Positions 1,142 through 11,987 of a stretch of DNA of 11,987 nt are shown piece by piece. The number at the start of each line of letters is the position of its first letter. Position 1 is the first letter of the stretch. A model generated the notes under the pieces. The model worked only from the letters and a program-made list of their open reading frames with translations. It was not told where the DNA came from and made no database searches. Made by a program: the position numbers and the translations under genes. Origin of the DNA: a virus (taxonomy: Duplodnaviria; Heunggongvirae; Uroviricota; Caudoviricetes); IMG/VR virus record IMGVR_UViG_2778261502_000005, positions 1-11,987 of that record. One strand, written 5' to 3'.

Positions 1142-1290
1142 TCATTCATAGTGCAGGGATTAAAATCATTCCCACTCAATTATTTACGACAACCATAACC
1201 AATTGAGTGATAACATTTTTCCAAAACTTCATTTTTCTCATACCGTTTTATATACCGTCACCGGAAATCAGTACCATGAAAAATGCCATG

Positions 1291-1773
1291 CTATCTGGTC
1301 AGGGTGTCGTACTGTTTTTCACAGACTCTTCCGGCTTCGGCTGCCCGGTCAGCATACTCTGCCAGTTGTCTGTTTCTCTCGAGAGATTTGCTGAGCACGT
1401 CGGCAAGCAAAACTCCGGTGTCTGCGGCTGACGTCCCAGCGCCGACAATGGCGTTATACTGCCTGAGTTGCTCACGGATGGCAACGAGCTGTTGCTGCAA
1501 CCGGCCAGCGCGAGCGGCAGCATCAAGAGCATCATTGCGCGCCTGGTCGATCCTCTGTTGCGCTTTACGTTCATTGATCGCTTTCTCCTGTTCGTAGTGC
1601 TGACGAACTTTCTCATCTTCGGCTTTGCGCTCTTCCTTCGCCTGTGCATACCCGGCGTCGTACTGTCGGCTACCATGCACATTCCAGGCAACAACTCCTG
1701 ATAGAGTCAAAACAGCAAGCATCGCCACGATAACCAACTGTTTCCAGTATGCTTTTACGAATGCCAAGATCAT
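1291..1773 (-). CDS. Rz-like inner-membrane spanin (i-spanin), 160 aa
   Basis: N-terminal transmembrane anchor (LVIVAMLAVLTLSGVVAW) followed by a long charged coiled-coil region. Start overlaps the endolysin stop as ATGA (1770-1773). Last gene of the lysis cassette. Confidence 0.7.
   Translation of the reverse strand: MILAFVKAYWKQLVIVAMLAVLTLSGVVAWNVHGSRQYDAGYAQAKEERKAEDEKVRQHYEQEKAINERKAQQRIDQARNDALDAAARAGRLQQQLVAIREQLRQYNAIVGAGTSAADTGVLLADVLSKSLERNRQLAEYADRAAEAGRVCEKQYDTLTR
1299..1535 (-). CDS. Candidate Rz1-like outer-membrane lipoprotein spanin (o-spanin) embedded in the +1 frame of Rz, 78 aa
   Basis: Internal ATG-ATG at 1535/1532 in the alternate frame of Rz. Short signal peptide with lipobox LALAGC, then a Ser/Pro-containing mature part. 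Weak SD (AGG) upstream. An embedded o-spanin is the standard Rz/Rz1 arrangement. Confidence 0.4.
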   Translation of the reverse strand: MMLLMLPLALAGCSNSSLPSVSNSGSITPLSALGRQPQTPEFCLPTCSANLSRETDNWQSMLTGQPKPEESVKNSTTP

Positions 1774-2399
1774 ATCGCCAGCACCTTACTGGCAGTGATG
1801 TATCGCTCACGCCTGTCGTCGATGCCGTTCCGGCCACCATTGATAATCAGAGTTACACGTGCAATATCGCCGGTATACTTCATGCAGCCTTTGCTGGAGA
1901 AAAACCACGCCGCGCTACGAGCCGCATATTCGTCCTGAGCCAGCAGTTCAGGACTCTCCAGCAGGTCAACCTTCAGACCGTTTCCACAGTCACGATAGTT
2001 ATTCAAACCGGTAATCTGGATAAGTCCGCGCCCACGGTAATTCCAGCCATCGCCGGGAGCATTGTTCCCCATGCGTTTGCTGTACACCAGATTTGCGATC
2101 GCGCGCTGGCGCTCAAGTGACAATGGTGGTTCGCCTGCGCGTCGCCCCAATACGTTGGCCTGTCCCTGAGTGAGACGCCCAGCCCGAACGAAGTTAACCA
2201 GTCCGCTGACGCTGTAGTTGAAATTCTCCTGCAACCGAGTGAAGCCCACAGACTCATGCCCGACCTGAGCAATAAACATTGCCTGATCTTCGGTTTTGCT
2301 GATACCAAACTCTTTCATCGCAGAAATTATATGCGAGAACCAGCGGTCGGCCAGCGACTCGCTGATACCAGCAGCTCGCTGAAATTGTTTAATCTCCAT
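1770..2399 (-). CDS. Endolysin, glycoside hydrolase family 19 (chitinase-like lysozyme) type, 209 aa
   Basis: Contains NYRGRGLIQITGLNNY, which matches the GH19 catalytic-region signature as I recall it, and a downstream AAWFF motif. No signal peptide. Sits between the holin-like genes and Rz with overlapping start and stop codons. Confidence 0.8.
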   Translation of the reverse strand: MEIKQFQRAAGISESLADRWFSHIISAMKEFGISKTEDQAMFIAQVGHESVGFTRLQENFNYSVSGLVNFVRAGRLTQGQANVLGRRAGEPPLSLERQRAIANLVYSKRMGNNAPGDGWNYRGRGLIQITGLNNYRDCGNGLKVDLLESPELLAQDEYAARSAAWFFSSKGCMKYTGDIARVTLIINGGRNGIDDRRERYITASKVLAI

Positions 2400-2697
2400 G
2401 TTTAGACCTCGCTAATTTGAAAATCTGAACGACGTTACCGCGTGTTTTAATAACCGCAGCAAGCATGACTACGTTGATAATGACCTCAGATAAATCCACT
2501 GCCATTGGCATGCTGAACCAGATTGCATAGGCGACACGAACCGGAATACTAGCCGCAGCAACAATCAGGAAATAAGCAAGCCAGCCACCCCATCGTCGGT
2601 GTTGAGATCCATTGCGCCGGAAAGTAACAACACGAATAGCTATGCCAGTACAAATAACTGCATTGGTGATAAGCAAAAAAATCTCATGCGTTACCAT
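2389..2697 (-). CDS. Holin-like small membrane protein (second of two), 102 aa
   Basis: Three predicted hydrophobic helices and a charged C-terminal tail (KTRGNVVQIFKLARSKHGD). SD GGGAG about 8 nt upstream of the ATG. Overlaps the upstream holin by 14 nt and the endolysin by 11 nt. Confidence 0.55.
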   Translation of the reverse strand: MVTHEIFLLITNAVICTGIAIRVVTFRRNGSQHRRWGGWLAYFLIVAAASIPVRVAYAIWFSMPMAVDLSEVIINVVMLAAVIKTRGNVVQIFKLARSKHGD

Positions 2698-3088
2698 CGT
2701 CTTTTCTCCCAGGAATCAACTCGCGTGGATTATCAGAACGATGATAGAGCCATATACCAATACGAACGGCGACAATTGCCGACACGAACGCACCTGTAGA
2801 AAATGCAATCCCTTTCTCGAATGAGTCCTGCGTGATGGTAGGGATCAGGCTGGCTACACCGATAAGGATGGATGCTGTAGGTTTGTAAAAGAGAAGGCCG
2901 CAGAGGAAGCTGAGCATCGACAGAAGAACACGACGACGGATTGGGTATTCTACTGCAGAGGTAACAAAAATTACCGCACCAGCCAAAGATCCCAAAGCGA
3001 CCTCTGGAGGAACTCCTGCTATCACCGACACTAAAGAACCAACGCTAAGCCACTGATTTAAAGATTCATTGGTTAACTGTATTGACAT
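2684..3088 (-). CDS. Holin-like membrane protein (first gene of the lysis cassette), about 134 aa
   Basis: Three to four hydrophobic segments. Start placed at the ATG at 3088, which has a GGTGG SD-like sequence 5 nt upstream. In-frame alternative starts exist at ATG 3100 and GTG 3118 (M-V-V-F-M spacing), so a dual-start holin/antiholin pair is possible but not demonstrated. Confidence 0.55.
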   Translation of the reverse strand: MSIQLTNESLNQWLSVGSLVSVIAGVPPEVALGSLAGAVIFVTSAVEYPIRRRVLLSMLSFLCGLLFYKPTASILIGVASLIPTITQDSFEKGIAFSTGAFVSAIVAVRIGIWLYHRSDNPRELIPGRKDDGNA

Positions 3089-3384
3089 AAAAACCACCAT
3101 TTTTGAGCATAATGACACTCTTAGCTAGTGAGTTCATTATACACAGCGAACCTTATATGGATTAGTGGTGGTTTATTTTAACGCTTAAAAAGCATACGCT
3201 GCTAATAGCACAACGCCTTGCAATCAGATGCAAACCTTTGTCCACTACTAATCTCAATGAAATAGATCAGCAAAGCATTTGACTCTCCCCGTTGGATGAT
3301 GTGTGAAGTGCTGACTAGAATGCTGCAAATATGATATGATGTTTGGCATCCATTGACTTTAATTTGTTATATAGATAAATACAT

Positions 3385-4386
3385 ATGAAAGAAATAAAAT
3401 CACTAACAGGTGTTAGAGGAATAGCTGCAATTTACGTAGTTCTTTATCACTTTACAAACGCAAAAATACCTTTTCTATGGAACGGATATCTAGCAGTAGA
3501 TCTTTTTTTCGTATTAAGCGGATTTATAATGTGTATGGTATACTCTAAAAATTTCACACAAGAAATATCTGTTAGTGAATTTGGAAAATTTATTTGGCAT
3601 AGATTTTCAAGAATATATCCATTATATTTATTTGTTTTATTATTAACAATAGTTATTCAAGTAAATCAATCATCGCCACCATCAACTCAAAATCTCATAA
3701 TAAATTTTATGATGTGGCAAAATTTATTTAATAATGGAATGGTTGGTGCATCATGGTCTGTTAGCGTTGAATTAATTGCGTATTTAATATTTCCGCCTCT
3801 AATATTCTTATTAACCGATAAGAAATGGTTATGTTTCATAATAATTTACACATCAATGTCAATGTTGTTTTATATTACAACAATTGACAACCCTGGTAGT
3901 AGCGGGCCACTTGATATATATAGCGGAATCCCTTCAATAATGAGAGGTGTTTGTGGTTTCACTATAGGTTGTTGTTGCTATGTTTTATTTGATAAATACA
4001 AACACACATTTAATGTTATTGCATATACTCAAGATATTTTGGCGGCTTTAGTAATAGCGTGTTTACTAACAAAAGGAATGGATGTTGTTTTTGTTATTTT
4101 GACCGGATTATATATATCATCGCTTTATTATAGCACTGGAATAACAGGATGGTTACTATCAACAAAACCTATTCATTATTTGGGGGAGTTGTCTTTTTCA
4201 ATTTACCTTACGCACCTGATGATACAAAGGCATTTTATATTTGAAGTGAATGCAATAACTGAATGGTTAAATGTTAGTTATATAAATGATGTGTTTGTTA
4301 TGGTTATATCTACACTGATGTTTTCTATATTAACATTTCATTTAGTAGAAAAGCCAAGCAGAAATATTCTAAGAAAACTAAAATAA
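3385..4386 (+). CDS. Acyltransferase-3 family integral-membrane O-acyltransferase (Oac-like O-antigen acetylase candidate), 333 aa
   Basis: N-terminal RGIAAIYVVLYHF and DLFFVLSGF motifs characteristic of acyltransferase-3 (R-x10-H and V-x2-FF-x-S-G). About ten hydrophobic helices. Very AT-rich (about 31% GC in the first 100 nt). No SD. Convergent with the tailspike gene. Confidence 0.8.
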   Translation: MKEIKSLTGVRGIAAIYVVLYHFTNAKIPFLWNGYLAVDLFFVLSGFIMCMVYSKNFTQEISVSEFGKFIWHRFSRIYPLYLFVLLLTIVIQVNQSSPPSTQNLIINFMMWQNLFNNGMVGASWSVSVELIAYLIFPPLIFLLTDKKWLCFIIIYTSMSMLFYITTIDNPGSSGPLDIYSGIPSIMRGVCGFTIGCCCYVLFDKYKHTFNVIAYTQDILAALVIACLLTKGMDVVFVILTGLYISSLYYSTGITGWLLSTKPIHYLGELSFSIYLTHLMIQRHFIFEVNAITEWLNVSYINDVFVMVISTLMFSILTFHLVEKPSRNILRKLK

Positions 4387-4393
4387 ACAAAAA

Positions 4394-4428
4394 ATGCCGA
4401 CGGATACTTAAACAATCTATCGGCATTA
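4394..4428. terminator. Bidirectional hairpin terminator between the convergent acyltransferase and tailspike genes
   Basis: AATGCCGA (4394-4401) pairs with TCGGCATT (4421-4428), with an inner GATA/TATC extension. A-run on the left and a T-rich tract on the right. Confidence 0.5.
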
Positions 4429-4434
4429 AATTTA

Positions 4435-6864
4435 TTAAGGATTACTTACCAACCCCTTCCATCCTCCACTTCCTGCGCTTGTGCATTGATAGAAGTATCC
4501 TGTGTTTTTGTCAACATATAATCCTCCTGGCTTACCATTAATAACTCCGTAAGGAGTTCCTGAACCGCTTATCAATGAAATACCATGTATAAAAGAAACA
4601 TTCTGACTATATGTTCCTGTCCCTGGAGCTCTGGCCATATCATTAATAGCACAAAGCCATGATCCAGCTGTTGATATGTTTGATATATTATCATCATCAT
4701 TTGGGACAATGGCTATCATTGGTATTGTTGCGTTTTTACCATAACCTCTAATATTACTTATTCCTCTTTGAACTCTTGAGTCTGTCAAATCTCTAATCAA
4801 TGGAACACTTACGCTATCTTCACAGATAAAGTTATTTATCGTGTAGTCATCACAGCTTGAATCAGTTTCTATATGAACCAATCCCTCGGCATCAGTATCG
4901 GAAGCTCCTGAGTATCCACCATCCCAAAAAATGCCATCTATGTTTATATATCTTGCTCCGCCGCTAATATATATATTACCAGCACCTCCGATAACCCTTA
5001 ATTCATTTATATAAATACCGTAGAACCCTAAAATTTCAACAACCCTTGCATGGTTTGATGTGTATTTTGAGTTGTTTGCGTTTTCAACCGTACAACTTGC
5101 TATAACGGAATACCTGGCATTTTGATGCCGCCCCGATGGTATTGATGCTGTATTAATGTGCTCAATTTGGAATCCATGAACACAATTTTTTGCATAACAT
5201 CTATAAAATTTAACACATCTTGCGGGCATTGTTGTTGAGTGGCCCTTCTGCTGAAATCCAGTCATTACCCCATCCGCATAACAATCCATCACGGTAACAT
5301 TATAACTTCCTTCATCAATTTCAATACCATGCTGATTCCCTGTCCATACCATATCAGGGTCATCGTTCCATACTCGGCAGCGGTTAATTACAATATCACT
5401 GCTATTATGCGTTGTAATGAGATCGTCAAGTTGACTGTTTTGAACAAAAGTGTCTTCAACAACAATGTCATAGCTACCACCAACTGCATTATTATTAATA
5501 TTCCCATCATCGAAATAATACCCAGCACAAATATCTATACCATGCTGCAAACCACGCTTACAGTAAACGTTTTTGATGGAACTGTGGCTGACAGTAGAAA
5601 ATAAAATAGTAGTCCCCTGTGTGGCATCCATCCATGTTTCTGACGGATTTCTTGCTCGATTGTTAGCATCTACACATAAGTCTTCTATGTGGATAGAAGT
5701 ATCGTAGTTTGTCCTGAATACCCTGTATTCATAAAGCTCGTTCTGAATACAGTTTTCAATTATCGGCATTGTTGGTAGTGCTAGAATAACGGTCTTAAAT
5801 TTCCCCACCCCACGCAATCTAACGTAAGATGGTACTTTCAGTGCAGAGTTAATCCCGTAAGTACCTTCAGAAAGAATAAGCTCTTTCACCGTTGCCATTT
5901 TTGCCGCTTGCAGTGCTTTGTTCAATTTATCATGACAATCCGTTACTCCATCAGGAACAATTCCGTAATAATCAGCATACACTTCATTGCAGATTCTTTT
6001 CCAACGCTTTCCACCAGGCGTCACAATTATCATTCCATCATCATCAATTGTTGTTAAATCAGTGCTATCATAATAAAAATACCCACCTCCAATACCAGAG
6101 CCTAAAGTATGCTCTAATACATATATTCTTTGCTGTAAATTTGTTGGTTCTATATTGCGTAAATTAGAAATGGAAGCACAATTGCCAATAAGTTTTAAGC
6201 CATCACTTGCTGCTAGCTGAATCATTACATCGGATGCAGATCCAGACTGTGGAAGGACCATAATAGGATTACCATTGTCATCCATCGCTACCACTTTGTT
6301 TTTACGATTCTCAGCATCAGGCAAACTTGGTATTGGCTCAGGCGTTCTAAGAGTACGACCTAGATTTGTATTAGCAAGTTTATCGACATAATTTTTAGTT
6401 GCCGCATCCTGTGGGCGCACAGGGTCTCGCAGATTTCTGATGTAGTTGTTAATAGCGTCATAATAATTCGACACAAAAGATGGCTTACGAAGAGCAAGTG
6501 AAAACCAACTTCTTACCTGCTGGATCAGCATCGTTAGCTTATCAAACGCGTCTTCGTGCACCTCAGCAAAAAACTTACCCTGGTTTCTAAGATCTGTTTC
6601 CTGAGTAACCGATAGTTCTCGCAATATGGAAATCTGATAACCATTAGCCAGTGCCTTCGACAGAATTACATTGCCACCGTTATACCCTCCCGCACCAGTG
6701 ACTGTGTAATCAGTATCAAGATCCAGCACAGTGATATTCTCGTCAAGGTCAATCACCTGCACTACTAAATCAGATTTATTGAAAACCCTAAAGGTATAAG
6801 GGAATGATGTCGTAACGCCGTTACCGGTGTATTCGTTGTGGTTAACTTCGGTTGAGACCGTCAT
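4435..6864 (-). CDS. Tailspike/tail fibre with T7-tail-fibre-like N-terminal anchor domain and C-terminal beta-helix (pectate-lyase-like) domain; probable polysaccharide depolymerase, 809 aa
   Basis: N-terminus (YTGNGVTTSFPYTF...DLVVQV...DYTVT...IRNLRDPVRPQDAATKNYVDKL) follows the conserved pattern of the T7 gp17 N-terminal domain. The remainder is rich in Gly/Asn/Ser/Thr/Ile as expected for a right-handed beta-helix. SD GGAG 7 nt upstream of the ATG. GC drops after roughly the first 170 codons. Confidence 0.8.
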   Translation of the reverse strand: MTVSTEVNHNEYTGNGVTTSFPYTFRVFNKSDLVVQVIDLDENITVLDLDTDYTVTGAGGYNGGNVILSKALANGYQISILRELSVTQETDLRNQGKFFAEVHEDAFDKLTMLIQQVRSWFSLALRKPSFVSNYYDAINNYIRNLRDPVRPQDAATKNYVDKLANTNLGRTLRTPEPIPSLPDAENRKNKVVAMDDNGNPIMVLPQSGSASDVMIQLAASDGLKLIGNCASISNLRNIEPTNLQQRIYVLEHTLGSGIGGGYFYYDSTDLTTIDDDGMIIVTPGGKRWKRICNEVYADYYGIVPDGVTDCHDKLNKALQAAKMATVKELILSEGTYGINSALKVPSYVRLRGVGKFKTVILALPTMPIIENCIQNELYEYRVFRTNYDTSIHIEDLCVDANNRARNPSETWMDATQGTTILFSTVSHSSIKNVYCKRGLQHGIDICAGYYFDDGNINNNAVGGSYDIVVEDTFVQNSQLDDLITTHNSSDIVINRCRVWNDDPDMVWTGNQHGIEIDEGSYNVTVMDCYADGVMTGFQQKGHSTTMPARCVKFYRCYAKNCVHGFQIEHINTASIPSGRHQNARYSVIASCTVENANNSKYTSNHARVVEILGFYGIYINELRVIGGAGNIYISGGARYINIDGIFWDGGYSGASDTDAEGLVHIETDSSCDDYTINNFICEDSVSVPLIRDLTDSRVQRGISNIRGYGKNATIPMIAIVPNDDDNISNISTAGSWLCAINDMARAPGTGTYSQNVSFIHGISLISGSGTPYGVINGKPGGLYVDKNTGYFYQCTSAGSGGWKGLVSNP

Positions 6865-6968
6865 GTTAAATCTCCAGATAGTCGCAGCACCCGTTGCGCC
6901 GCATATCCGATTATTCTATTACCCGAAAAACCATATATGGATAGATAGACCATGAATACAAACAGATA

Positions 6969-6983
6969 TTACCTTTCAGGTGA
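6969..6983. promoter_or_regulatory. Operator-like palindrome TTACC-N5-GGTGA upstream of the tailspike gene
   Basis: TTACCtttcaGGTGA, a 9/10 match to the TTACC-N5-GGTAA motif found around the repressor gene. Lies about 105 bp upstream of the tailspike ATG, next to a TTGCAA hexamer on the minus strand. Confidence 0.4.
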
Positions 6984-7012
6984 TTTGCAAAACGTGCTGG
7001 ATAGCAAACAAA

Positions 7013-7708
7013 TTATTTGATACTGTATAAATATACAGTTATTGCATGGAGAAGATAAGATGCAGCAGTATCACTATCCACTGGAAGACGGATTTTCCGA
7101 AGAAAGTCATCTGATGGCTGCCATTGTTCATGCATGACAAATTTGCCTAATTGCCCTGGCCCACCAGGAGGAACAAAGTTATTCATCACGGCGTTGTTTG
7201 CGCCGGGGTCATGATGCACAGAATCCCCGTTTTTTGTCCTGCTCTCCCTCTCTTGGTTAAATGACTGGTTATATGACTGGTTCTGGATCCCGTTTTTGGG
7301 ATCATTCAACATCCCGTTTTTGGGATCATTCAACATCCCGTTTTTGGGTATATTCCCGTTTTCGGGTATATTCCCGTTTTCGGGTATATTCCCGTTTTCG
7401 GGTTCATTGCCCCCCTCCCGGTTGCCTTTAATGTTCCCGTTTTTGGTTATATTAAGAGAGAAAACCCGCACTCTTTTTGTCGCTCCCTTTCTATCTCCGG
7501 TATCTGAAATAAGCCCCATTTTCATGAGCGATATAAGCCCGGCCTGCACGGTTTTTTTATTCAGGCAAGTGTCTTTAACGAGGCGTTCTATGCTGGGGTA
7601 GCAGAGGTTATATTCATCGGCTCTGTCAGCCATCGAGAGCAGTATGAGCTTTAATGATGAGCTACCTGGATCTGTCTCCCAGGCCCAATCTGTTGCATGT
7701 CTGCTCAT
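7013..7708 (-). CDS. Phage replication initiator, O-like, with N-terminal winged-HTH domain and internal repeat region, 231 aa
   Basis: N-terminal region (LKLILLSMADRADEYNLCYPSIERLVKDTCLNKKTVQAGLISLMKMGLISD) has the pattern of phage and plasmid replication-initiator HTH domains. The central part is a tandem peptide repeat (ENGNIP x3, NDPKNGML x2) encoded by iteron-like DNA repeats. Starts 13 nt after the upstream gene. Confidence 0.75.
   Translation of the reverse strand: MSRHATDWAWETDPGSSSLKLILLSMADRADEYNLCYPSIERLVKDTCLNKKTVQAGLISLMKMGLISDTGDRKGATKRVRVFSLNITKNGNIKGNREGGNEPENGNIPENGNIPENGNIPKNGMLNDPKNGMLNDPKNGIQNQSYNQSFNQERESRTKNGDSVHHDPGANNAVMNNFVPPGGPGQLGKFVMHEQWQPSDDFLRKIRLPVDSDTAASYLLHAITVYLYSIK
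7021..7040. promoter_or_regulatory. Candidate LexA (SOS) box
   Basis: TACTGTATAAATATACAGTT matches the consensus TACTGTATATATATACAGTA at 18 of 20 positions, with perfect CTGT-N8-ACAG arms and an all-A/T spacer. It lies within the last 9 codons of the O-like gene, about 157 bp upstream of the tailspike ATG. Confidence 0.55.
7289..7453. repeat. Iteron-like direct repeats (candidate replication origin) inside the O-like gene
   Basis: Seven tandem units sharing the core CCCGTTTT(T/C)GG(G/T): 24-bp units at 7289 and 7313; 18-bp units at 7337, 7355, 7373, 7391 and 7436. The core CCCGAAAACGGG is itself palindromic. A further 12-bp tandem (ATGACTGGTT-AT/CT) lies at 7261-7284. Confidence 0.65.
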
Positions 7709-7723
7709 GATTAATCTCCGCTA

Positions 7724-7924
7724 TCAGCTTGAGTGTTGTGGGGAGGAATTAATCATGATCTGCTTAATCTCTGCCCTGATGCGACGGTTTGATTCCATGG
7801 TGCACTCAACACAGTGTCCGTTGTAAACCCAGCGTTCACTGTCATGTCCGTGCTTACATGGTTTTCCGGTGTAGTAGCGTTTAAGTCCGCGCTTTGCGGC
7901 ATCAATACGTGTAATGATTTCCAT
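7724..7924 (-). CDS. Small Cys/His-rich (putative zinc-binding) protein in the cII-equivalent position, 66 aa
   Basis: Start placed at the internal ATG at 7924 (MEIITRI...), with an AGGG SD-like sequence upstream; the longer ORF beginning at 7987 adds a hydrophobic leader. Motif C-x-H-x-H-x13-H-C-x2-C. Function not recognisable from sequence. Confidence 0.45.
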   Translation of the reverse strand: MEIITRIDAAKRGLKRYYTGKPCKHGHDSERWVYNGHCVECTMESNRRIRAEIKQIMINSSPQHSS

Positions 7925-8004
7925 GGTAAGCCCTGTTATTAGTATTGGGATTACGGTTATTTTGTGCTGACACAAAAAAAAGATCAACCATATTTGGTTT
8001 TTTA

Positions 8005-8019
8005 TTACCTTTGAGGTAC
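8005..8019. promoter_or_regulatory. Operator-like palindrome TTACC-N5-GGTAC between the cro-side terminator and the Cys/His gene
   Basis: TTACCtttgaGGTAC, a 9/10 match to the shared motif. Confidence 0.4.
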
Positions 8020-8029
8020 GGATAGATAT

Positions 8030-8053
8030 GAAAAGACCGCCGGATGGCGGTCT
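8030..8053 (-). terminator. tR1-like rho-independent terminator downstream of the Cro-like gene
   Basis: GC-rich 8-bp stem AGACCGCC (8034-8041), loop GGAT, GGCGGTCT (8046-8053). On the minus strand it is followed by TTTTCAT. Sits between the Cro-like stop (8075) and the next gene. Confidence 0.5.
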
Positions 8054-8074
8054 ACAGAGGGTTGTGGCTGGATA

Positions 8075-8305
8075 TCATGAGTAGAAGAAGTATGCCAGTT
8101 CTGCTTTTGAGCGCAGCCATTGTCTTGTTTTACAGGCTTTAAAAAGCCCATTCATCAATACTTTACCTGGCATTTTGCGCTTACCTGTTAAGTGAGTCTG
8201 GATATAGTGACTCGTCGTTCCGGCTTCCTGTGCGAAGGCTTCACGCTCATCCGGAGTAAGTGCAAGCCAGTGCTTTTTGAAATCGAAATGTCCGTTATCG
8301 CTCAT
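8075..8305 (-). CDS. Cro-like small HTH regulator (DicC/YdaS-like), 76 aa
   Basis: Small basic protein divergently transcribed from the repressor gene. Putative HTH around EAFAQEAGTTSHYIQTHLTG. The position matches lambda cro. Family call is tentative. Confidence 0.6.
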   Translation of the reverse strand: MSDNGHFDFKKHWLALTPDEREAFAQEAGTTSHYIQTHLTGKRKMPGKVLMNGLFKACKTRQWLRSKAELAYFFYS

Positions 8306-8341
8306 AGCTATTGCCTGATATTTATTTCAGATAATAAATAT

Positions 8342-8404
8342 TCACCTATAAGGTAACAAAAATCAAGGATAGTTACCCATGAGGTGCATTTACCTGTTGG
8401 GTAA
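8342..8404. promoter_or_regulatory. OR-like operator cluster of three TTACC-N5-GGTAA-type palindromes in the divergent Cro-like/repressor promoter region
   Basis: Sites at 8342-8356 (TCACCtataaGGTAA), 8373-8387 (TTACCcatgaGGTGC) and 8390-8404 (TTACCtgttgGGTAA, perfect). An AT-rich 9-6-9 palindrome ATATTTATT-N6-AATAAATAT lies at 8318-8341. Confidence 0.6.
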
Positions 8405-8459
8405 TATTGCTTTAAATTGAATCATCTACTGATTCATATATGAGGCGATTTTCCAGAAA

Positions 8460-9044
8460 ATGAAAAGTATCCAGGACGTCCGCAGGCAAAATCTCAACGA
8501 CTTGATCGACCGTGAATTCAATGGTGTTCAGACGCGGATGGCAGAAAAACTTGGAACTCAGGCAAATCTGGTAAACCGCTGGGCTCTTGGCAAGAAGGTT
8601 ATCGGCGACCAGGTTGCGCGAAAAATTGAAGCTGCCGCCAATAAACCCCGTAATTGGCTTGATATCGATCGCTCGCTTTCTCAGGAAGGTTTTCAGCCTG
8701 TCGGCCCGAGTGATATAGGTCAGCTGGCTGCTCACAACCTGGAACGCTGGATGAGCGAAAGCCGCGACCTTTCAACACAGGGAAAACTTCACCGCGCATC
8801 CGGCGTCGCCCAGGTGACAATCAGCCGCCTGTTAAACAATGAGGTCAGCGTTTCCATTTCCACCCTGGAGAATGTTGCATCCGCATTCGGGCGTCACGGC
8901 TATGAATTACTGATTCACCCGCACGACCCTGCGACTATCAACTATGACCGCTCGCGCTACGCATTGTTACCCGAAACAGAGAAGGCAAAGATCGAAAGTT
9001 ACATTGAATTTGTCATCAGCCAGAACGAAAAAAACAAACAATAA
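8460..9044 (+). CDS. Phage repressor with two tandem XRE-type HTH domains and no S24 peptidase domain, 194 aa
   Basis: First HTH around QTRMAEKLGTQANLVNRWALGKK, second around LHRASGVAQVTISRLLNNEV. No Ala-Gly/Ser-Lys autocleavage module is recognisable. The nearest SD-like GAGG is about 14 nt upstream of the ATG. Flanked by operator palindromes on both sides. Confidence 0.8.
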   Translation: MKSIQDVRRQNLNDLIDREFNGVQTRMAEKLGTQANLVNRWALGKKVIGDQVARKIEAAANKPRNWLDIDRSLSQEGFQPVGPSDIGQLAAHNLERWMSESRDLSTQGKLHRASGVAQVTISRLLNNEVSVSISTLENVASAFGRHGYELLIHPHDPATINYDRSRYALLPETEKAKIESYIEFVISQNEKNKQ

Positions 9045-9065
9045 AATCATATTTTTCAGTAAGTA

Positions 9066-9090
9066 AGCCGCCTTCTGGCGGCTTTTTTAT
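9066..9090 (+). terminator. Rho-independent terminator after the repressor gene
   Basis: AGCCGCC (9066-9072), loop TTCT, GGCGGCT (9077-9083), followed by TTTTTTATT. Confidence 0.75.
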
Positions 9091-9100
9091 TGCCAGATAG

Positions 9101-9123
9101 ATTACCTTACGGGTAATTTTTTT
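9101..9123 (+). terminator. Second hairpin with T-tract; also a perfect copy of the operator palindrome (OL-like distal site)
   Basis: ATTACC-ttacg-GGTAAT followed by TTTTTTT. The core TTACCttacgGGTAA lies at 9102-9116. Confidence 0.5.
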
Positions 9124-9135
9124 AACTCATATCTA

Positions 9136-9178
9136 TTGACACCAAACCAAATAAGCATAATTATTACCTCAACGGTAA
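9136..9178 (+). promoter_or_regulatory. pL-like early promoter with overlapping operator, driving the small ORF, methyltransferase and phosphatase
   Basis: Consensus -35 TTGACA (9136-9141), 17-bp spacer, -10 candidate AATTAT (9159-9164). Perfect operator TTACCtcaacGGTAA (9164-9178) overlaps the -10 and the predicted transcription start. SD GAGGT at 9185-9189. Confidence 0.55.
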
Positions 9179-9197
9179 CAGACCGAGGTAACAAGTT

Positions 9198-9347
9198 ATG
9201 CAGTGGAAAATCATCAACGGTTGGTACTGCGTTACTGCATGCGGATTCATGAGCTGGAAGTTCCGCACCTTACAGGAAGGTATTAAGTGGGCTTTCGTCA
9301 GCAAAGAAGCTCGCGATGTGGCCAACGATAACGAGATATGGGAGTAG
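9198..9347 (+). CDS. Small ORF of unknown function (first gene of the early operon), 49 aa
   Basis: ATG with SD GAGGT 8 nt upstream. Trp- and Cys-containing (MQWKIINGWYCVTACGF...). Absent from the ORF track because of its length. Coding status unverified. Confidence 0.4.
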   Translation: MQWKIINGWYCVTACGFMSWKFRTLQEGIKWAFVSKEARDVANDNEIWE

Positions 9348-9421
9348 GTTAGCAAATGAGTGAATTGTCAATCATCGAAATCACACCAGACATAGCGGCA
9401 TAGGATGTTGTGGGGTGGTTT

Positions 9422-10072
9422 ATGACTAAGAAATACACACTAATCTATGCAGATCCACCCTGGGTATACCGGGACAAAGCCGCAGATGGTAATCGCGGTG
9501 CCGGTTTTAAATATCCGGTTATGAGTGTGCTGGATATCTGCCGCCTTCCTGTGTGGGATTTGGCCGATGAAAACTGTCTGTTGGCCATGTGGTGGGTGCC
9601 AACACAACCACTCGAAGCACTAAAAGTTGTTGAAGCCTGGGGATTCCGTCTGATGACGATGAAGGGCTTCACGTGGATAAAATGTGGTAGTCGACAACCA
9701 GATAAACTGGTTATGGGTATGGGACACATGACTCGCGCCAATAGTGAAGATTGCCTGTTTGCAGTAAAGGGAAAACTACCTCCGCGCATTAATGCAGGGA
9801 TCGTTCAGTCATTTACCGCACCGCGGCTTGAGCATTCAAGAAAACCAGATGTCGTTCGTGAAAAACTTGTGCAATTGTTAGGCGATGTTTCTCGCATTGA
9901 ACTGTTCGCCCGCCAGTCGTCTCATGGCTTCGATGTTTGGGGTAATCAGTGCGAAGACCCGGCAGTGCAACTACACCCTGGATACGCGTTGGATATTGGC
10001 GGATTAACAAATGCATTCAGCAATGCTCCGGTGTCACCAATAGACAACCAGGGGCGGGAGCGTGCAGCATGA
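9422..10072 (+). CDS. MT-A70 family N6-adenine DNA methyltransferase, 216 aa
   Basis: Catalytic DPPW motif in [10 protein letters not shown]. Start placed at the ATG at 9422, with a GGGGTGG SD-like sequence upstream; the ORF track uses GTG at 9410. Stop overlaps the phosphatase start as ATGA. Confidence 0.8.
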
Positions 10073-10728
10073 ACCTATATCAACGCATCAATGGCGCTGA
10101 CTGGTGCAATATCTTCGTCGTCGGCGATCTGCATGGGTGCTACACGCTGCTGATGAACGAACTCGACAAAGTTTCATTCGACCCGGCGCGCGATTTACTT
10201 ATTTCCGTTGGTGACCTTGTTGACCGCGGCGCTGAAAACGTCGAATGCCTGGATTTGATTACTATGCCGTGGTTCCGAGCTGTTCGTGGCAACCATGAGC
10301 AGATGATGCTGGATGCACTGGTCAACGGCGGAAGTTTCGGACATTGGATGTCAAACGGCGGTGGATGGTGGCACCAACTTGATTCTGAGCAGGATGTGCA
10401 ACTCAAATACCTTCTGCCAAAGATTACCAACCTCCCGATGATTATCGAACTGGTTACCGGCAATAAGAAGGTCGTCATCTGTCACGCAGACTACCCGCAC
10501 AACGAATACGCATTCGATAAGCCAGTACCAGAAGAAATGGTGATATGGAATCGTGAACGGGTTAGCGACGCGCAGGACGGTATTGTCTCGGAGATAACCG
10601 GTGCCGATTTGTTCATCTTCGGTCATACGCCAGCACATCACCCACTGGTGTATGCAAACCAGATGTACATCGACACCGGCGCAGTGTTCTGCGGAAATCT
10701 GACGCATACCAAAGTCCAGGAAGGATAG
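10069..10728 (+). CDS. Lambda-type serine/threonine protein phosphatase (metallophosphoesterase, PrpA/PrpB-like), 219 aa
   Basis: Signature motifs GDLHG, GDLVDRG and GNHE. The ATG at 10069 overlaps the methyltransferase stop. The longer track ORF from 9949 is an out-of-context N-terminal extension. Confidence 0.85.
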
Positions 10729-10730
10729 AA

Positions 10731-11987
10731 TTATTTATTACTGTCTTCCATCCACTTCTCAAACTTCGACGGGGAGAACGGAATCAGATCCGTATGCTCC
10801 CCGTTAATCCAGGAATCAATCATATCGGCCCACTGCTGCAACATGTAGGCGCGCTGTCTGGCGTATTCCGCTTTGTTATATACGGCGCGCACACCTTTCT
10901 GCTCATGTGCCAGAGCCTTTTCAATCCAGTCTGAAGGATAACCAGCCTCATGCAACAACGTACTTGCTGTACGGCGCATATCGTGTACGGTGAAGTCCTG
11001 AATATGCTCACCATCTTCATTTATTATTTTCACCGTTCTGTCGATCAGAGAGTTCAGCGCGGCATTAGATAATGGCTTCCGGAAATTGTAACGACCAGGA
11101 ACCAGATATTCACTTCCACCAGCGCACATCTGCAACCCAACCAATATATCCTGTGCCTGTTTAGGCAGGTAAATAACGTGCGCCCGGCTTCCCTTCATGC
11201 GGTCTGAAGGAATTGTCCATGTCCATTTTTTAAAATCTATTTCATCCCACGTTGCATTGGTGAATTCGCCTTTACGAACCATAGTGATAAGCACCAGCTT
11301 TAAAGCCATTTTCATAGTGCCCATAGCACCAATGGCATCCAGCGTGCGGAAGAACAGGCCAATTTCTTCTGGTGTCAGTGTTCGCTCTCGTGGTTTAAAT
11401 ATGGCGATAGACGAAGGTTTAATGTCAGCCGCAGGATTAAACAAACCATGACCACGGTCATTGGCATGACGGTATACGCTGCTGATGATCTCCCTGGCCT
11501 GCACTGCTGTTGCCCGGCCACCGCGTTCGACAATCCGGTCACACAAATCACGAACCATCGATGTGGTAATTTCAGCCATCATTTTATTGCCAAGAACCGG
11601 AAGTATGTCACGGTCGATCACCGCCTGTTTCATTGCGCGGGTACTGTCAGCCAGGATGACGTGTTTCATATAACTGTCGGTATGTACCGCAAACGTCTCG
11701 GCACCACGAATCTTTTTGATACCGTCACGTTTAGCCGCAGCCGGTGACTGGCCTGCTTTAAGCAGCTTCTTTGCAGCAATCAGTTCTTCTCGCGCTTCTG
11801 CCAGGCTGATACCGTCACGCCCATACTGCCCGATTACCAGCGTTTCGCGGCGACCGTTGATACGGTAGTCGTAGCGAAACGAGACCGTGCCTGACGTAAG
11901 CACAGCTACATACAGCCCGTCACGATCGGAGACCTTGTACAGTTTGTCCTGCGGCTTGAGGTTTTTTAATTTTGTATCGGTAAGCAC
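10731..11987 (-). CDS. int: Tyrosine recombinase, phage integrase with N-terminal arm-binding domain, 418 aa
   Basis: N-terminus MLTDTKLKNLKP...DGLYVAV is typical of arm-type-binding integrase N-termini. C-terminal catalytic H-x-x-R (HDMRRT) and tyrosine in RAVYNKAEY. First codon is GTG at the window edge, so the true start may lie just outside. The 3' end is 2 bp from the phosphatase stop. Confidence 0.85.
   Translation of the reverse strand: MLTDTKLKNLKPQDKLYKVSDRDGLYVAVLTSGTVSFRYDYRINGRRETLVIGQYGRDGISLAEAREELIAAKKLLKAGQSPAAAKRDGIKKIRGAETFAVHTDSYMKHVILADSTRAMKQAVIDRDILPVLGNKMMAEITTSMVRDLCDRIVERGGRATAVQAREIISSVYRHANDRGHGLFNPAADIKPSSIAIFKPRERTLTPEEIGLFFRTLDAIGAMGTMKMALKLVLITMVRKGEFTNATWDEIDFKKWTWTIPSDRMKGSRAHVIYLPKQAQDILVGLQMCAGGSEYLVPGRYNFRKPLSNAALNSLIDRTVKIINEDGEHIQDFTVHDMRRTASTLLHEAGYPSDWIEKALAHEQKGVRAVYNKAEYARQRAYMLQQWADMIDSWINGEHTDLIPFSPSKFEKWMEDSNK

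Follow-up and report, generated by a model that had tools for sequence, protein, structure and literature searches.

A probable SPC32H-type immunity repressor in a phiV10-like prophage remnant that has lost its antirepressor gene

Rep, the repressor of the temperate Salmonella phage SPC32H, belongs to a family whose induction logic was solved experimentally in 2013-2016 (Kim & Ryu 2013, J Virol; Kim et al. 2016, PNAS). In the 2013 work of Kim and Ryu, Rep is said to have remained uncleaved during the SOS response, and the constitutively lytic growth of the sibling phage SPC32N was reportedly due to a point mutation in the LexA site, which overlaps the ant promoter; the antirepressor Ant is likewise said to be structurally distinct from Tum-type proteins. 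SPC32H Rep has been crystallised both alone (PDB 5D4Z) and with Ant (PDB 5D50). According to one report on these assemblies (PMC9638917), Rep moves between a dimeric and a tetrameric state, of which the tetramer binds DNA, the DNA-reading pairs coming from different dimers, and tetrameric Ant takes two Rep dimers, breaking the Rep tetramer; another report (PMC9986798) assigns both tetramerisation and contact with Ant to the C-terminal domain of Rep. A review (PMC7380047, citing Kim & Ryu 2013) gives the order of events in several Salmonella prophages as self-cleavage of LexA, production of the antirepressor and inhibition of the repressor by protein-protein contact. On the E. coli side, overexpression of ORF21 of phage vB_EcoP_ZX5 brought free phage to zero and lowered endolysin transcripts by 99.99% and holin transcripts by 99.97% (PMC9782041).

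The window, by which we mean the whole stretch of 11,987 nucleotides that was analysed, holds a prophage of the phiV10/epsilon15 type (Uetakevirus) lying between yfgI and guaA in an Escherichia chromosome. Its gene order is that of phiV10: a lysis cassette, an acyltransferase and a tailspike are followed by three minus-strand genes (dnaT-like, p42 and cro-like), then by the repressor, p39, methylase and phosphatase genes, and finally by the integrase (Table 1). We conclude, with a probability of roughly nine in ten, that the product of rep is the CI-equivalent immunity repressor of this type of prophage and a member of the SPC32H Rep family, and that its partner gene ant has been lost here. 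A protein whose RefSeq label reads only 'helix-turn-helix domain-containing protein' can be named as a prophage repressor of the SPC32H type, a type controlled by an antirepressor. Earlier work had already described the protein together with its architecture and operators and the antirepressor switch of the family; the locus adds the remnant state and the loss of ant.

Table 1. Features of the rep region and of the deletion junction, in window coordinates.
Feature	Position	Strand	Details and basis
Rep-operator-like site, TTACCTTTCAGGTGA	6969..6983		Divergent tailspike/ant intergenic region, beside the LexA box; motif search
LexA (SOS) box of the ant promoter, TACTGTATAAATATACAGTT	7021..7040		18/20 against the E. 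coli LexA consensus
ant stub, first 13 codons (MQQYHYPLEDGFS)	7060..7101	+	Translation and alignment to phiV10 p24; the fused ORF runs to a stop at 7135-7137
Putative deletion junction	7093..7101		9-bp microhomology TTTTCCGAA (TTTACCGAA in phiV10 ant); ant codons 12-14 joined to the dnaT-like interior; three-way alignment
dnaT-like/replication-initiator gene, 5' part, 3'-truncated	7102..7708	-	phiV10 p43 orthologue; phrog_1032, E=3e-77, aa 1-216; Pfam HTH_36
cro-like gene, 76 aa	8075..8305	-	phiV10 p41 / epsilon15 gp39 orthologue; phrog_35 'transcriptional repressor', E=5.6e-13; phiV10 synteny
PR-like promoter, cro-like/replication operon	8331..8359	-	TTGTTA-17-TATTAT; predicted by consensus scan only; overlapped by operator 8342-8356
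OR-like cluster, cro-like gene/rep intergenic region	8342..8404		Predicted operators 8342-8356 TCACCTATAAGGTAA, 8373-8387 TTACCCATGAGGTGC and 8390-8404 TTACCTGTTGGGTAA
rep, probable immunity repressor, 194 aa	8460..9044	+	ATG start; phiV10 p40 / ZX5 ORF21 / epsilon15 gp38 orthologue, SPC32H Rep homologue
Rep N-terminal HTH domain (aa 1-62)	8460..8645	+	Likely operator-reading; recognition-helix motif NLVNRW; weak Pfam match, AF2, SPC32H Rep alignment
Rep second HTH_3-type domain (aa ~85-152)	8712..8915	+	Pfam HTH_3; AF2 helices 83-151; Foldseek to 5D4Z
Rep C-terminal tail (aa ~155-194)	8922..9041	+	Conserved I-x-Y-D strand and long helix; aligned to 5D4Z/5D50
Rho-independent terminator 3' of rep	9065..9092	+	Terminator scan; phiV10 annotated at the same place
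OL/PL-like region	9102..9178	+	Predicted operators 9102-9116 TTACCTTACGGGTAA and 9164-9178 TTACCTCAACGGTAA; predicted promoter TTGACA(9136)-17-AATTAT(9164)

The identity of Rep is carried by its relatives. A single residue separates it (99.5% identity) from phiV10 p40, from ZX5 ORF21 and from the repressors of O157 typing phages 9 and 10. The GenBank entry of phiV10 describes p40 as a 'putative transcriptional repressor; two helix-turn-helix motifs (PF01381); similar to epsilon15p38', and the epsilon15 record labels gp38 a repressor, citing an HHpred match to 5d50_A. With SPC32H Rep, BLASTP aligns 196 aa at 42% identity (E=2e-53); by module, identity is highest in the N-terminal HTH (55%), followed by the tail (47%) and the second HTH (32%), and the NLVNRW motif is identical. 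The depositor annotation of SPC32H names both rep and ant. A profile of the family run against the PDB found 5D50, entitled 'Rep-Ant complex', at E=6.4e-65 over positions 1-192 and 5D4Z, entitled 'Repressor from Salmonella-temperate phage', at E=1.8e-32 over the C-terminal half, and the same two entries were the best Foldseek matches of the Rep model (TM 0.77 to the Rep CTD of 5D4Z). PHROGs assigns Rep to families of transcriptional regulators and repressors. Among 5.8 billion proteins searched there were 86 relatives, nearly all of which measure 190-198 aa and come from Enterobacteriaceae, and in most homologues PF15943 and PF01381 occur together in the precomputed annotation.

Rep consists of two HTH domains and a third, short C-terminal module, and it has no S24 peptidase. 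In Pfam an HTH_3 match (aa 106-147, E=1.2e-9) stands above the cut-off and a YdaS_toxin/Cro-like HTH (aa 21-61, E=3e-4) below it, and Peptidase_S24 (PF00717) is absent even at E<=1. The AlphaFold2 model, built on an alignment of 28 homologues, is a monomer of moderate confidence (mean pLDDT 76.6, pTM 0.40), and the tetramer is beyond its reach. It contains two separate all-helical bundles (helices 4-59 and 83-151) on either side of a disordered linker (74-83), the helices of the N-terminal domain running at 4-19, 24-31, 35-43 and 50-59, and it ends in a tail whose residues 157-163 are of low confidence and are followed by a long helix (172-193). The beta-rich S24 fold has no counterpart in the model, no S24 structure appears among its Foldseek fold matches, and the PDB profile search for such a domain was equally empty. 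Because Rep aligns over its full length to SPC32H Rep (5D50), there is no space in it for a cryptic peptidase. A sequence-only reading of this DNA had claimed two HTH domains within the 194 aa and the lack of an S24 region, and on both points it was right; what it overlooked is the third module at aa ~155-194, which by alignment is homologous to the tetramerisation and Ant-binding element of SPC32H Rep ('CAD', 'TetDloop'). Residues Y162, L170 and F184 of this tail are invariant in the 28 homologues, as are N36, R40 and W41 of the N-terminal HTH. The oligomeric state of Rep and its contacts with Ant are extrapolated from SPC32H Rep at 42% identity (32% in the second HTH), and they would resemble those of that protein. 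An internal duplication of the HTH was considered and rejected: the two halves of Rep give no BLASTP alignment to each other, and this lack of mutual similarity points to two different HTH subtypes and not to a recent duplication.

The DNA on either side of rep carries repeated operator-like sites. The putative operator motif is a 15-bp palindrome, TTACC-N5-GGTAA, and sites that match it with at most one mismatch occur six times in the window against 0.31 expected, all of them within 6969-9178. Between the cro-like gene and rep there is an OR-like cluster of three (8342, 8373 and 8390, a count that includes one site with two mismatches), and each of them is kept in Enterobacter phage Tyrion, Klebsiella phage BUCT711, epsilon15 and SPC32H. 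Just 3' of the rep terminator, flanked by the two OL-like operators, a rightward PL-like promoter, with its TTGACA at 9136, is predicted to be strong and to serve an early-left operon whose first gene lies at 9198-9347; this TTGACA and both OL-like operators are kept in five genus members, and the epsilon15 record marks the equivalent OL sites 'protein_bind repressor, lysogeny'. The operator-like site beside the LexA box is identical in phiV10, SPC32H has TTACCTTACAGGTAA in the equivalent place, and the epsilon15 record annotates a repressor-binding site at the ant-proximal position. With their positions conserved in Tyrion, BUCT711, epsilon15 and SPC32H, the OR and OL sites are the predicted cognate operators of Rep.

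The annotated start of rep is supported by an MKSI N-terminus that is invariant across the 28 aligned homologues. As had been remarked from the sequence, only a distant SD, a GAGG 14 nt 5' of the ATG, precedes it, and a canonical SD was found in none of five aligned genus members, all with A/U-rich leaders. A leaderless mRNA in the manner of lambda pRM, which had been suggested along with this, is unsupported: a consensus scan placed no promoter so as to initiate at the rep ATG, and the only conserved -10-like element, TAAATT at 8414-8419 just 3' of the third operator, makes the best candidate for the -10 of rep and would give an A/U-rich leader of ~34 nt. A mini-ORF of seven codons (ATG 8440 to TGA 8463) overlaps the start of rep in an ATGA. 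Its ATG at -20 is present in SPC32H too, and since Tyrion has AAG and Klebsiella BUCT711 has CAG at this place, translational coupling was dismissed and the overlap put down to chance.

If Rep is not cleaved, its induction calls for another agent, and the sequence-only reading had proposed an antirepressor, LexA-controlled factors or another route, pointing for the LexA-controlled factors to an SOS box at 7021-7040. This box, with 18 of 20 positions as in the LexA consensus, is unique in the window (0 expected by chance), and its homologues are the sole LexA box of the phiV10 genome, 20-39 nt 5' of p24, and the sequence TACTGTATGTTTATACAGTG upstream of ant in SPC32H. The product of p24 is 88% identical to SPC32H Ant and 84-88% identical to the Ants of Salmonella phages, and Ant homologues are found alongside Rep in 35 of 37 phage records. 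As a side observation, conservation between E. coli and Salmonella phages is much higher for Ant (84-88%) than for Rep (42%). The proposal of a non-cleavable repressor induced through a LexA-tied antirepressor agrees well with the SPC32H Rep/Ant family. The expectation of an antirepressor gene under the box itself fared less evenly: in phiV10 and SPC32H the box does precede ant, but in the window ant is cut after 13 codons, and this copy of Rep is left without a route of induction in cis. The partner gene behind the LexA box, divergent from the tailspike, is present in the near-identical phiV10. Its absence here is the loss of a partner and does not change the identity of Rep.

The loss of ant can be traced to a putative deletion. 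Positions 6800-7101 align to the divergent tail-fibre/p24 region of phiV10, from 7093 onwards the alignment is to the interior of the dnaT-like p43, and BLAST matches from either side stop at 7093-7101. Judged by phiV10 coordinates the deletion would measure about 25.8 kb, and with it went the whole set of virion and packaging genes, those of the late region, gene P and p23, together with p24 from its codon 14 onwards and the 3' end of the dnaT-like gene. Also missing by comparison with phiV10 is a second region (recET etc.). The dnaT-like ORF now reads through the junction down to 7013. The LexA box lies inside this ORF (7013-7708) because the deletion joined foreign sequence to the dnaT-like gene, and a role for the box as a regulator of the ORF was rejected. 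The junction at 7093-7101 is spanned by none of the complete E. coli genomes that were searched; in the best-matching genome, that of E. coli AF56, the same chromosomal site carries a deletion other than this one, with rep intact and the LexA box wholly absent. By its gene content, then, the element in the window is a defective and predictably non-viable prophage remnant that would not be SOS-inducible by itself.

The agent that inactivates the repressor in intact E. coli phages could be a different one. The only experiment on an E. coli phage is that on ZX5, and the 'anti-repressor' of that study is ORF4, a Bro-N protein and not an Ant of the SPC32H type: under its overexpression repressor mRNA fell by 75% and the titre of the prophage, 1e9 before, dropped to 1e6 (PMC9782041). 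The phiV10 record calls the corresponding p23 a 'putative anti-immunity protein', p23 and p24 share a strand, with p23 the downstream one, and in SPC32H the interval from ant to the structural genes upstream contains no Bro-N-type gene. Taken together, these points would make the Bro-N protein (phiV10 p23 / ZX5 ORF4) the working antirepressor of phiV10-type E. coli phages, either in place of the small Ant or in addition to it, and would leave the mechanism of Rep otherwise unchanged. We consider this unlikely, however, given that p24 has 88% identity to an experimentally defined Ant, follows directly on the sole LexA box of phiV10 and co-occurs with Rep across the genus, that a terminator is predicted between p24 and p23, and that the ORF4 assay was one of overexpression without a binding test. 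Both p23 and p24 are deleted in the window, and the choice between Bro-N protein and Ant leaves the content of the window unchanged.

With the small Ant preferred as the partner of Rep in intact relatives, there is still the question of whether rep serves any purpose in an element as reduced as this one. Virion genes, ant, part of the replication module and the recET etc. region are gone, and rep might be a functionless relic of a decayed prophage, no longer expressed or needed. The state of the gene speaks otherwise: its ORF is intact and encodes a protein one residue away from functional phage repressors, the operators, predicted promoters and terminator of the region are all intact, and the AF56 remnant, differently deleted at the same site, also retains an intact rep. 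The relic reading strikes us as quite improbable.

Much less can be said for Rep as an antitoxin of the HigA/VapI type. In phage BP9 the protein is labelled 'plasmid maintenance system antidote protein VapI', the Pfam family name is YdaS_toxin, and the N-terminal half of Rep has weak PDB profile matches to HigA antitoxins (E=0.02-0.8); but no toxin gene adjoins rep, whose neighbours are a divergent cro-like gene on one side and, beyond a terminator, the early-left genes on the other, and its place between divergent early operons with repeated operators is that of cI. As Rep also matches a crystallised phage repressor strongly along its full length, and functional data exist for ZX5 ORF21 (PMC9782041), we give the antitoxin reading almost no credence. 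A cryptic self-cleavage that would let RecA induce Rep directly, as with lambda CI, is just as implausible, the linker at aa 63-84 between the domains being the sole consideration in its favour, against the missing S24 match, the all-helical model, the coverage of the whole length by homology to SPC32H Rep and the description of the family as antirepressor-controlled (PMC7380047, PMC9638917).

For Rep as the immunity repressor of a Uetakevirus prophage, we propose a switch in which tetramer binding, the action of Ant and non-cleavage are carried over from the family. The N-terminal HTH would read TTACC-N5-GGTAA in the rep/cro-like intergenic region, at the early-left promoter and beside the ant promoter, while assembly of Rep into dimers and tetramers, the tetramer being the form that binds DNA, would be the task of the second HTH-like domain together with the tail. 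Having no S24 autoprotease, Rep would not be cut by RecA*. In intact relatives, DNA damage would make LexA leave the single SOS box, the small (~85-aa) Ant would be produced, and Ant would bind Rep and strip it from the DNA without proteolysis. In the window the switch appears to be broken, with an intact rep, its operators and an orphan LexA box remaining after the deletion of ant. The Rep of the remnant may still silence the residual early promoters, it probably gives immunity to incoming phages of the phiV10 type, and it could presumably be inactivated only in trans, by the Ant of another prophage or of an infecting phage. Probable immunity to phiV10-type (O157-typing) phages bears on phage typing, on biocontrol and on the use of reporter phages against strains that carry such a remnant.

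The p24 product of phiV10 is 84-88% identical to the Ants of Salmonella phages while the Reps are 42% identical, and the same operator half-sites serve both immunity types. These observations allow the idea that Ant is a 'universal' antirepressor throughout the genus, acting through a few invariant surfaces of Rep, and that remnants without ant are locked immunity modules which can be switched only in trans. We offer this as a speculation that is possible but rather doubtful. If it is true, the element in the window and the independently deleted AF56 remnant would be switched off only by a co-resident or incoming Uetakevirus, and a network of crosstalk in the style of the Gifsy phages would exist in E. 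coli, possibly kept for defence, along with the retained genes for the tailspike, the O-antigen acyltransferase and lysis.

Set against known systems, the locus stands nearest to phiV10 p40, ZX5 ORF21 and the repressors of O157 typing phages 9 and 10, with which its Rep is 99.5% identical, although those phages are intact and plaque-forming and possess both ant (p24) and the Bro-N gene (p23). SPC32H Rep shares the genus Uetakevirus, the gene position, a near-equal length (198 versus 194 aa), the three-module layout and NLVNRW, and its phage has TTACC-N5-GGTAA operators at the OR, OL and ant-proximal positions and a LexA box 5' of ant; at 42% identity, however, the Rep of the window represents another immunity allele, one belonging to E. 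coli phages, and ant is deleted in the window. Epsilon15 gp38, also at 42% identity, has repressor sites annotated at the OL-equivalent and ant-proximal positions, but belongs to an intact phage of the Salmonella immunity type. Coliphage 186, with CI and Tum, and the Gifsy and Fels-2 prophages follow the same logic of a non-cleavable repressor, a small LexA-repressed antirepressor and possible crosstalk in trans (PMC7380047; Lemire 2011), although their repressors and antirepressors are unrelated in sequence to Rep and Ant. With lambda CI, P22 C2 and LexA, Rep has in common a position between divergent PR- and PL-like operons, triple OR operators and an immunity function. Where those proteins have a C-terminal S24 domain, with a Ser/Lys dyad and an Ala-Gly-type cleavage site, Rep has instead a second HTH-like domain and a tetramerisation tail, so that, unlike them, it would not undergo RecA-stimulated self-cleavage.

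The prophage in the window is a remnant, extending from about 1290 to 11987. A deletion of about 25.8 kb, with its junction in a 9-bp microhomology, TTTTCCGAA (7093-7101), has fused codon 13 of ant, the LexA-controlled antirepressor gene, to the interior of a dnaT-like gene, with the loss of all of the virion and packaging genes. None of the complete E. coli RefSeq genomes that were searched spans this junction. Another phiV10-like remnant occupies the same yfgI/guaA site in E. coli AF56 (NZ_OZ546963), where the deletion is a different one and a partial gene P adjoins a truncated tail-fibre gene (AF56 8040-8330). That remnant has an intact rep, the immunity repressor gene, and is devoid of both the LexA box and ant; the loss of ant and the retention of rep through a different deletion indicate that ant-less remnants have originated independently, more than once.

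The lysis cassette is likewise kept in the window, and together with the putative acyltransferase and the tailspike it may represent retained lysogenic-conversion or defence functions. In the dnaT-like gene, on the minus strand, tandem DNA repeats at 7290-7345 (TGGGATCATTCAACATCCCGTTTTT twice, with further short repeats) give the replication protein a repetitive NGNIPENGNIPE.../NGMLNDPKNGMLNDPK stretch.

Genes and operator-like sites retained in the window
Feature	Position	Strand	Remarks
Acyltransferase-like membrane protein	3385-4386	+	Assigned from position alone, that of the phiV10 O-antigen acetyltransferase gene (oac)
Tailspike	4435-6864	-	Full-length, 809 aa
Rep-operator-like palindrome	6969-6983		ant/tailspike divergent region; distance to the LexA box about 40 bp
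Operator-like site TTACCTTTGAGGTAC	8005-8019		One mismatch; between the post-cro-like terminator (8034-8053) and the p42-like gene

The palindrome beside the LexA box is kept in phiV10 and SPC32H, and the epsilon15 record carries an annotated repressor site at the matching position. The site suggests that Rep also acts on the ant or the tailspike promoter. In phiV10 a terminator hairpin is predicted between p24 (ant) and p23, the Bro-N protein gene (about 20394-20415), and its stem-loop holds a perfect operator-type palindrome, TTACC-GCAAA-GGTAA.

A seven-codon mini-ORF, MRRFSRK* (8440-8463), ends on a stop codon whose overlap with the start of rep reads ATGA. Its ATG, at -20 of rep, is present in SPC32H and missing from Tyrion and Klebsiella BUCT711, so the mini-ORF is probably a chance occurrence.

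The 'anti-repressor' assayed in the study of E. coli phage ZX5 was ORF4, a Bro-N protein of the phiV10 p23 type, and the Ant homologue was not assayed there (PMC9782041). ZX5 also encodes a p24/Ant homologue (MW722083, 2092-2346; 97.6% identical), annotated solely as a hypothetical protein. Between the E. coli and Salmonella uetakeviruses, Ant is 84-88% identical (phiV10 20543-20800 against SPC32H 1677-1937), whereas Rep is only 42% identical (window 8460-9044); the TTACC/GGTAA operator half-sites and the NLVNRW recognition helix are common to both groups. These sequence comparisons hint that antirepressors might cross-react, or that partial cross-immunity might exist, between the uetakeviruses of E. 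coli and those of Salmonella.
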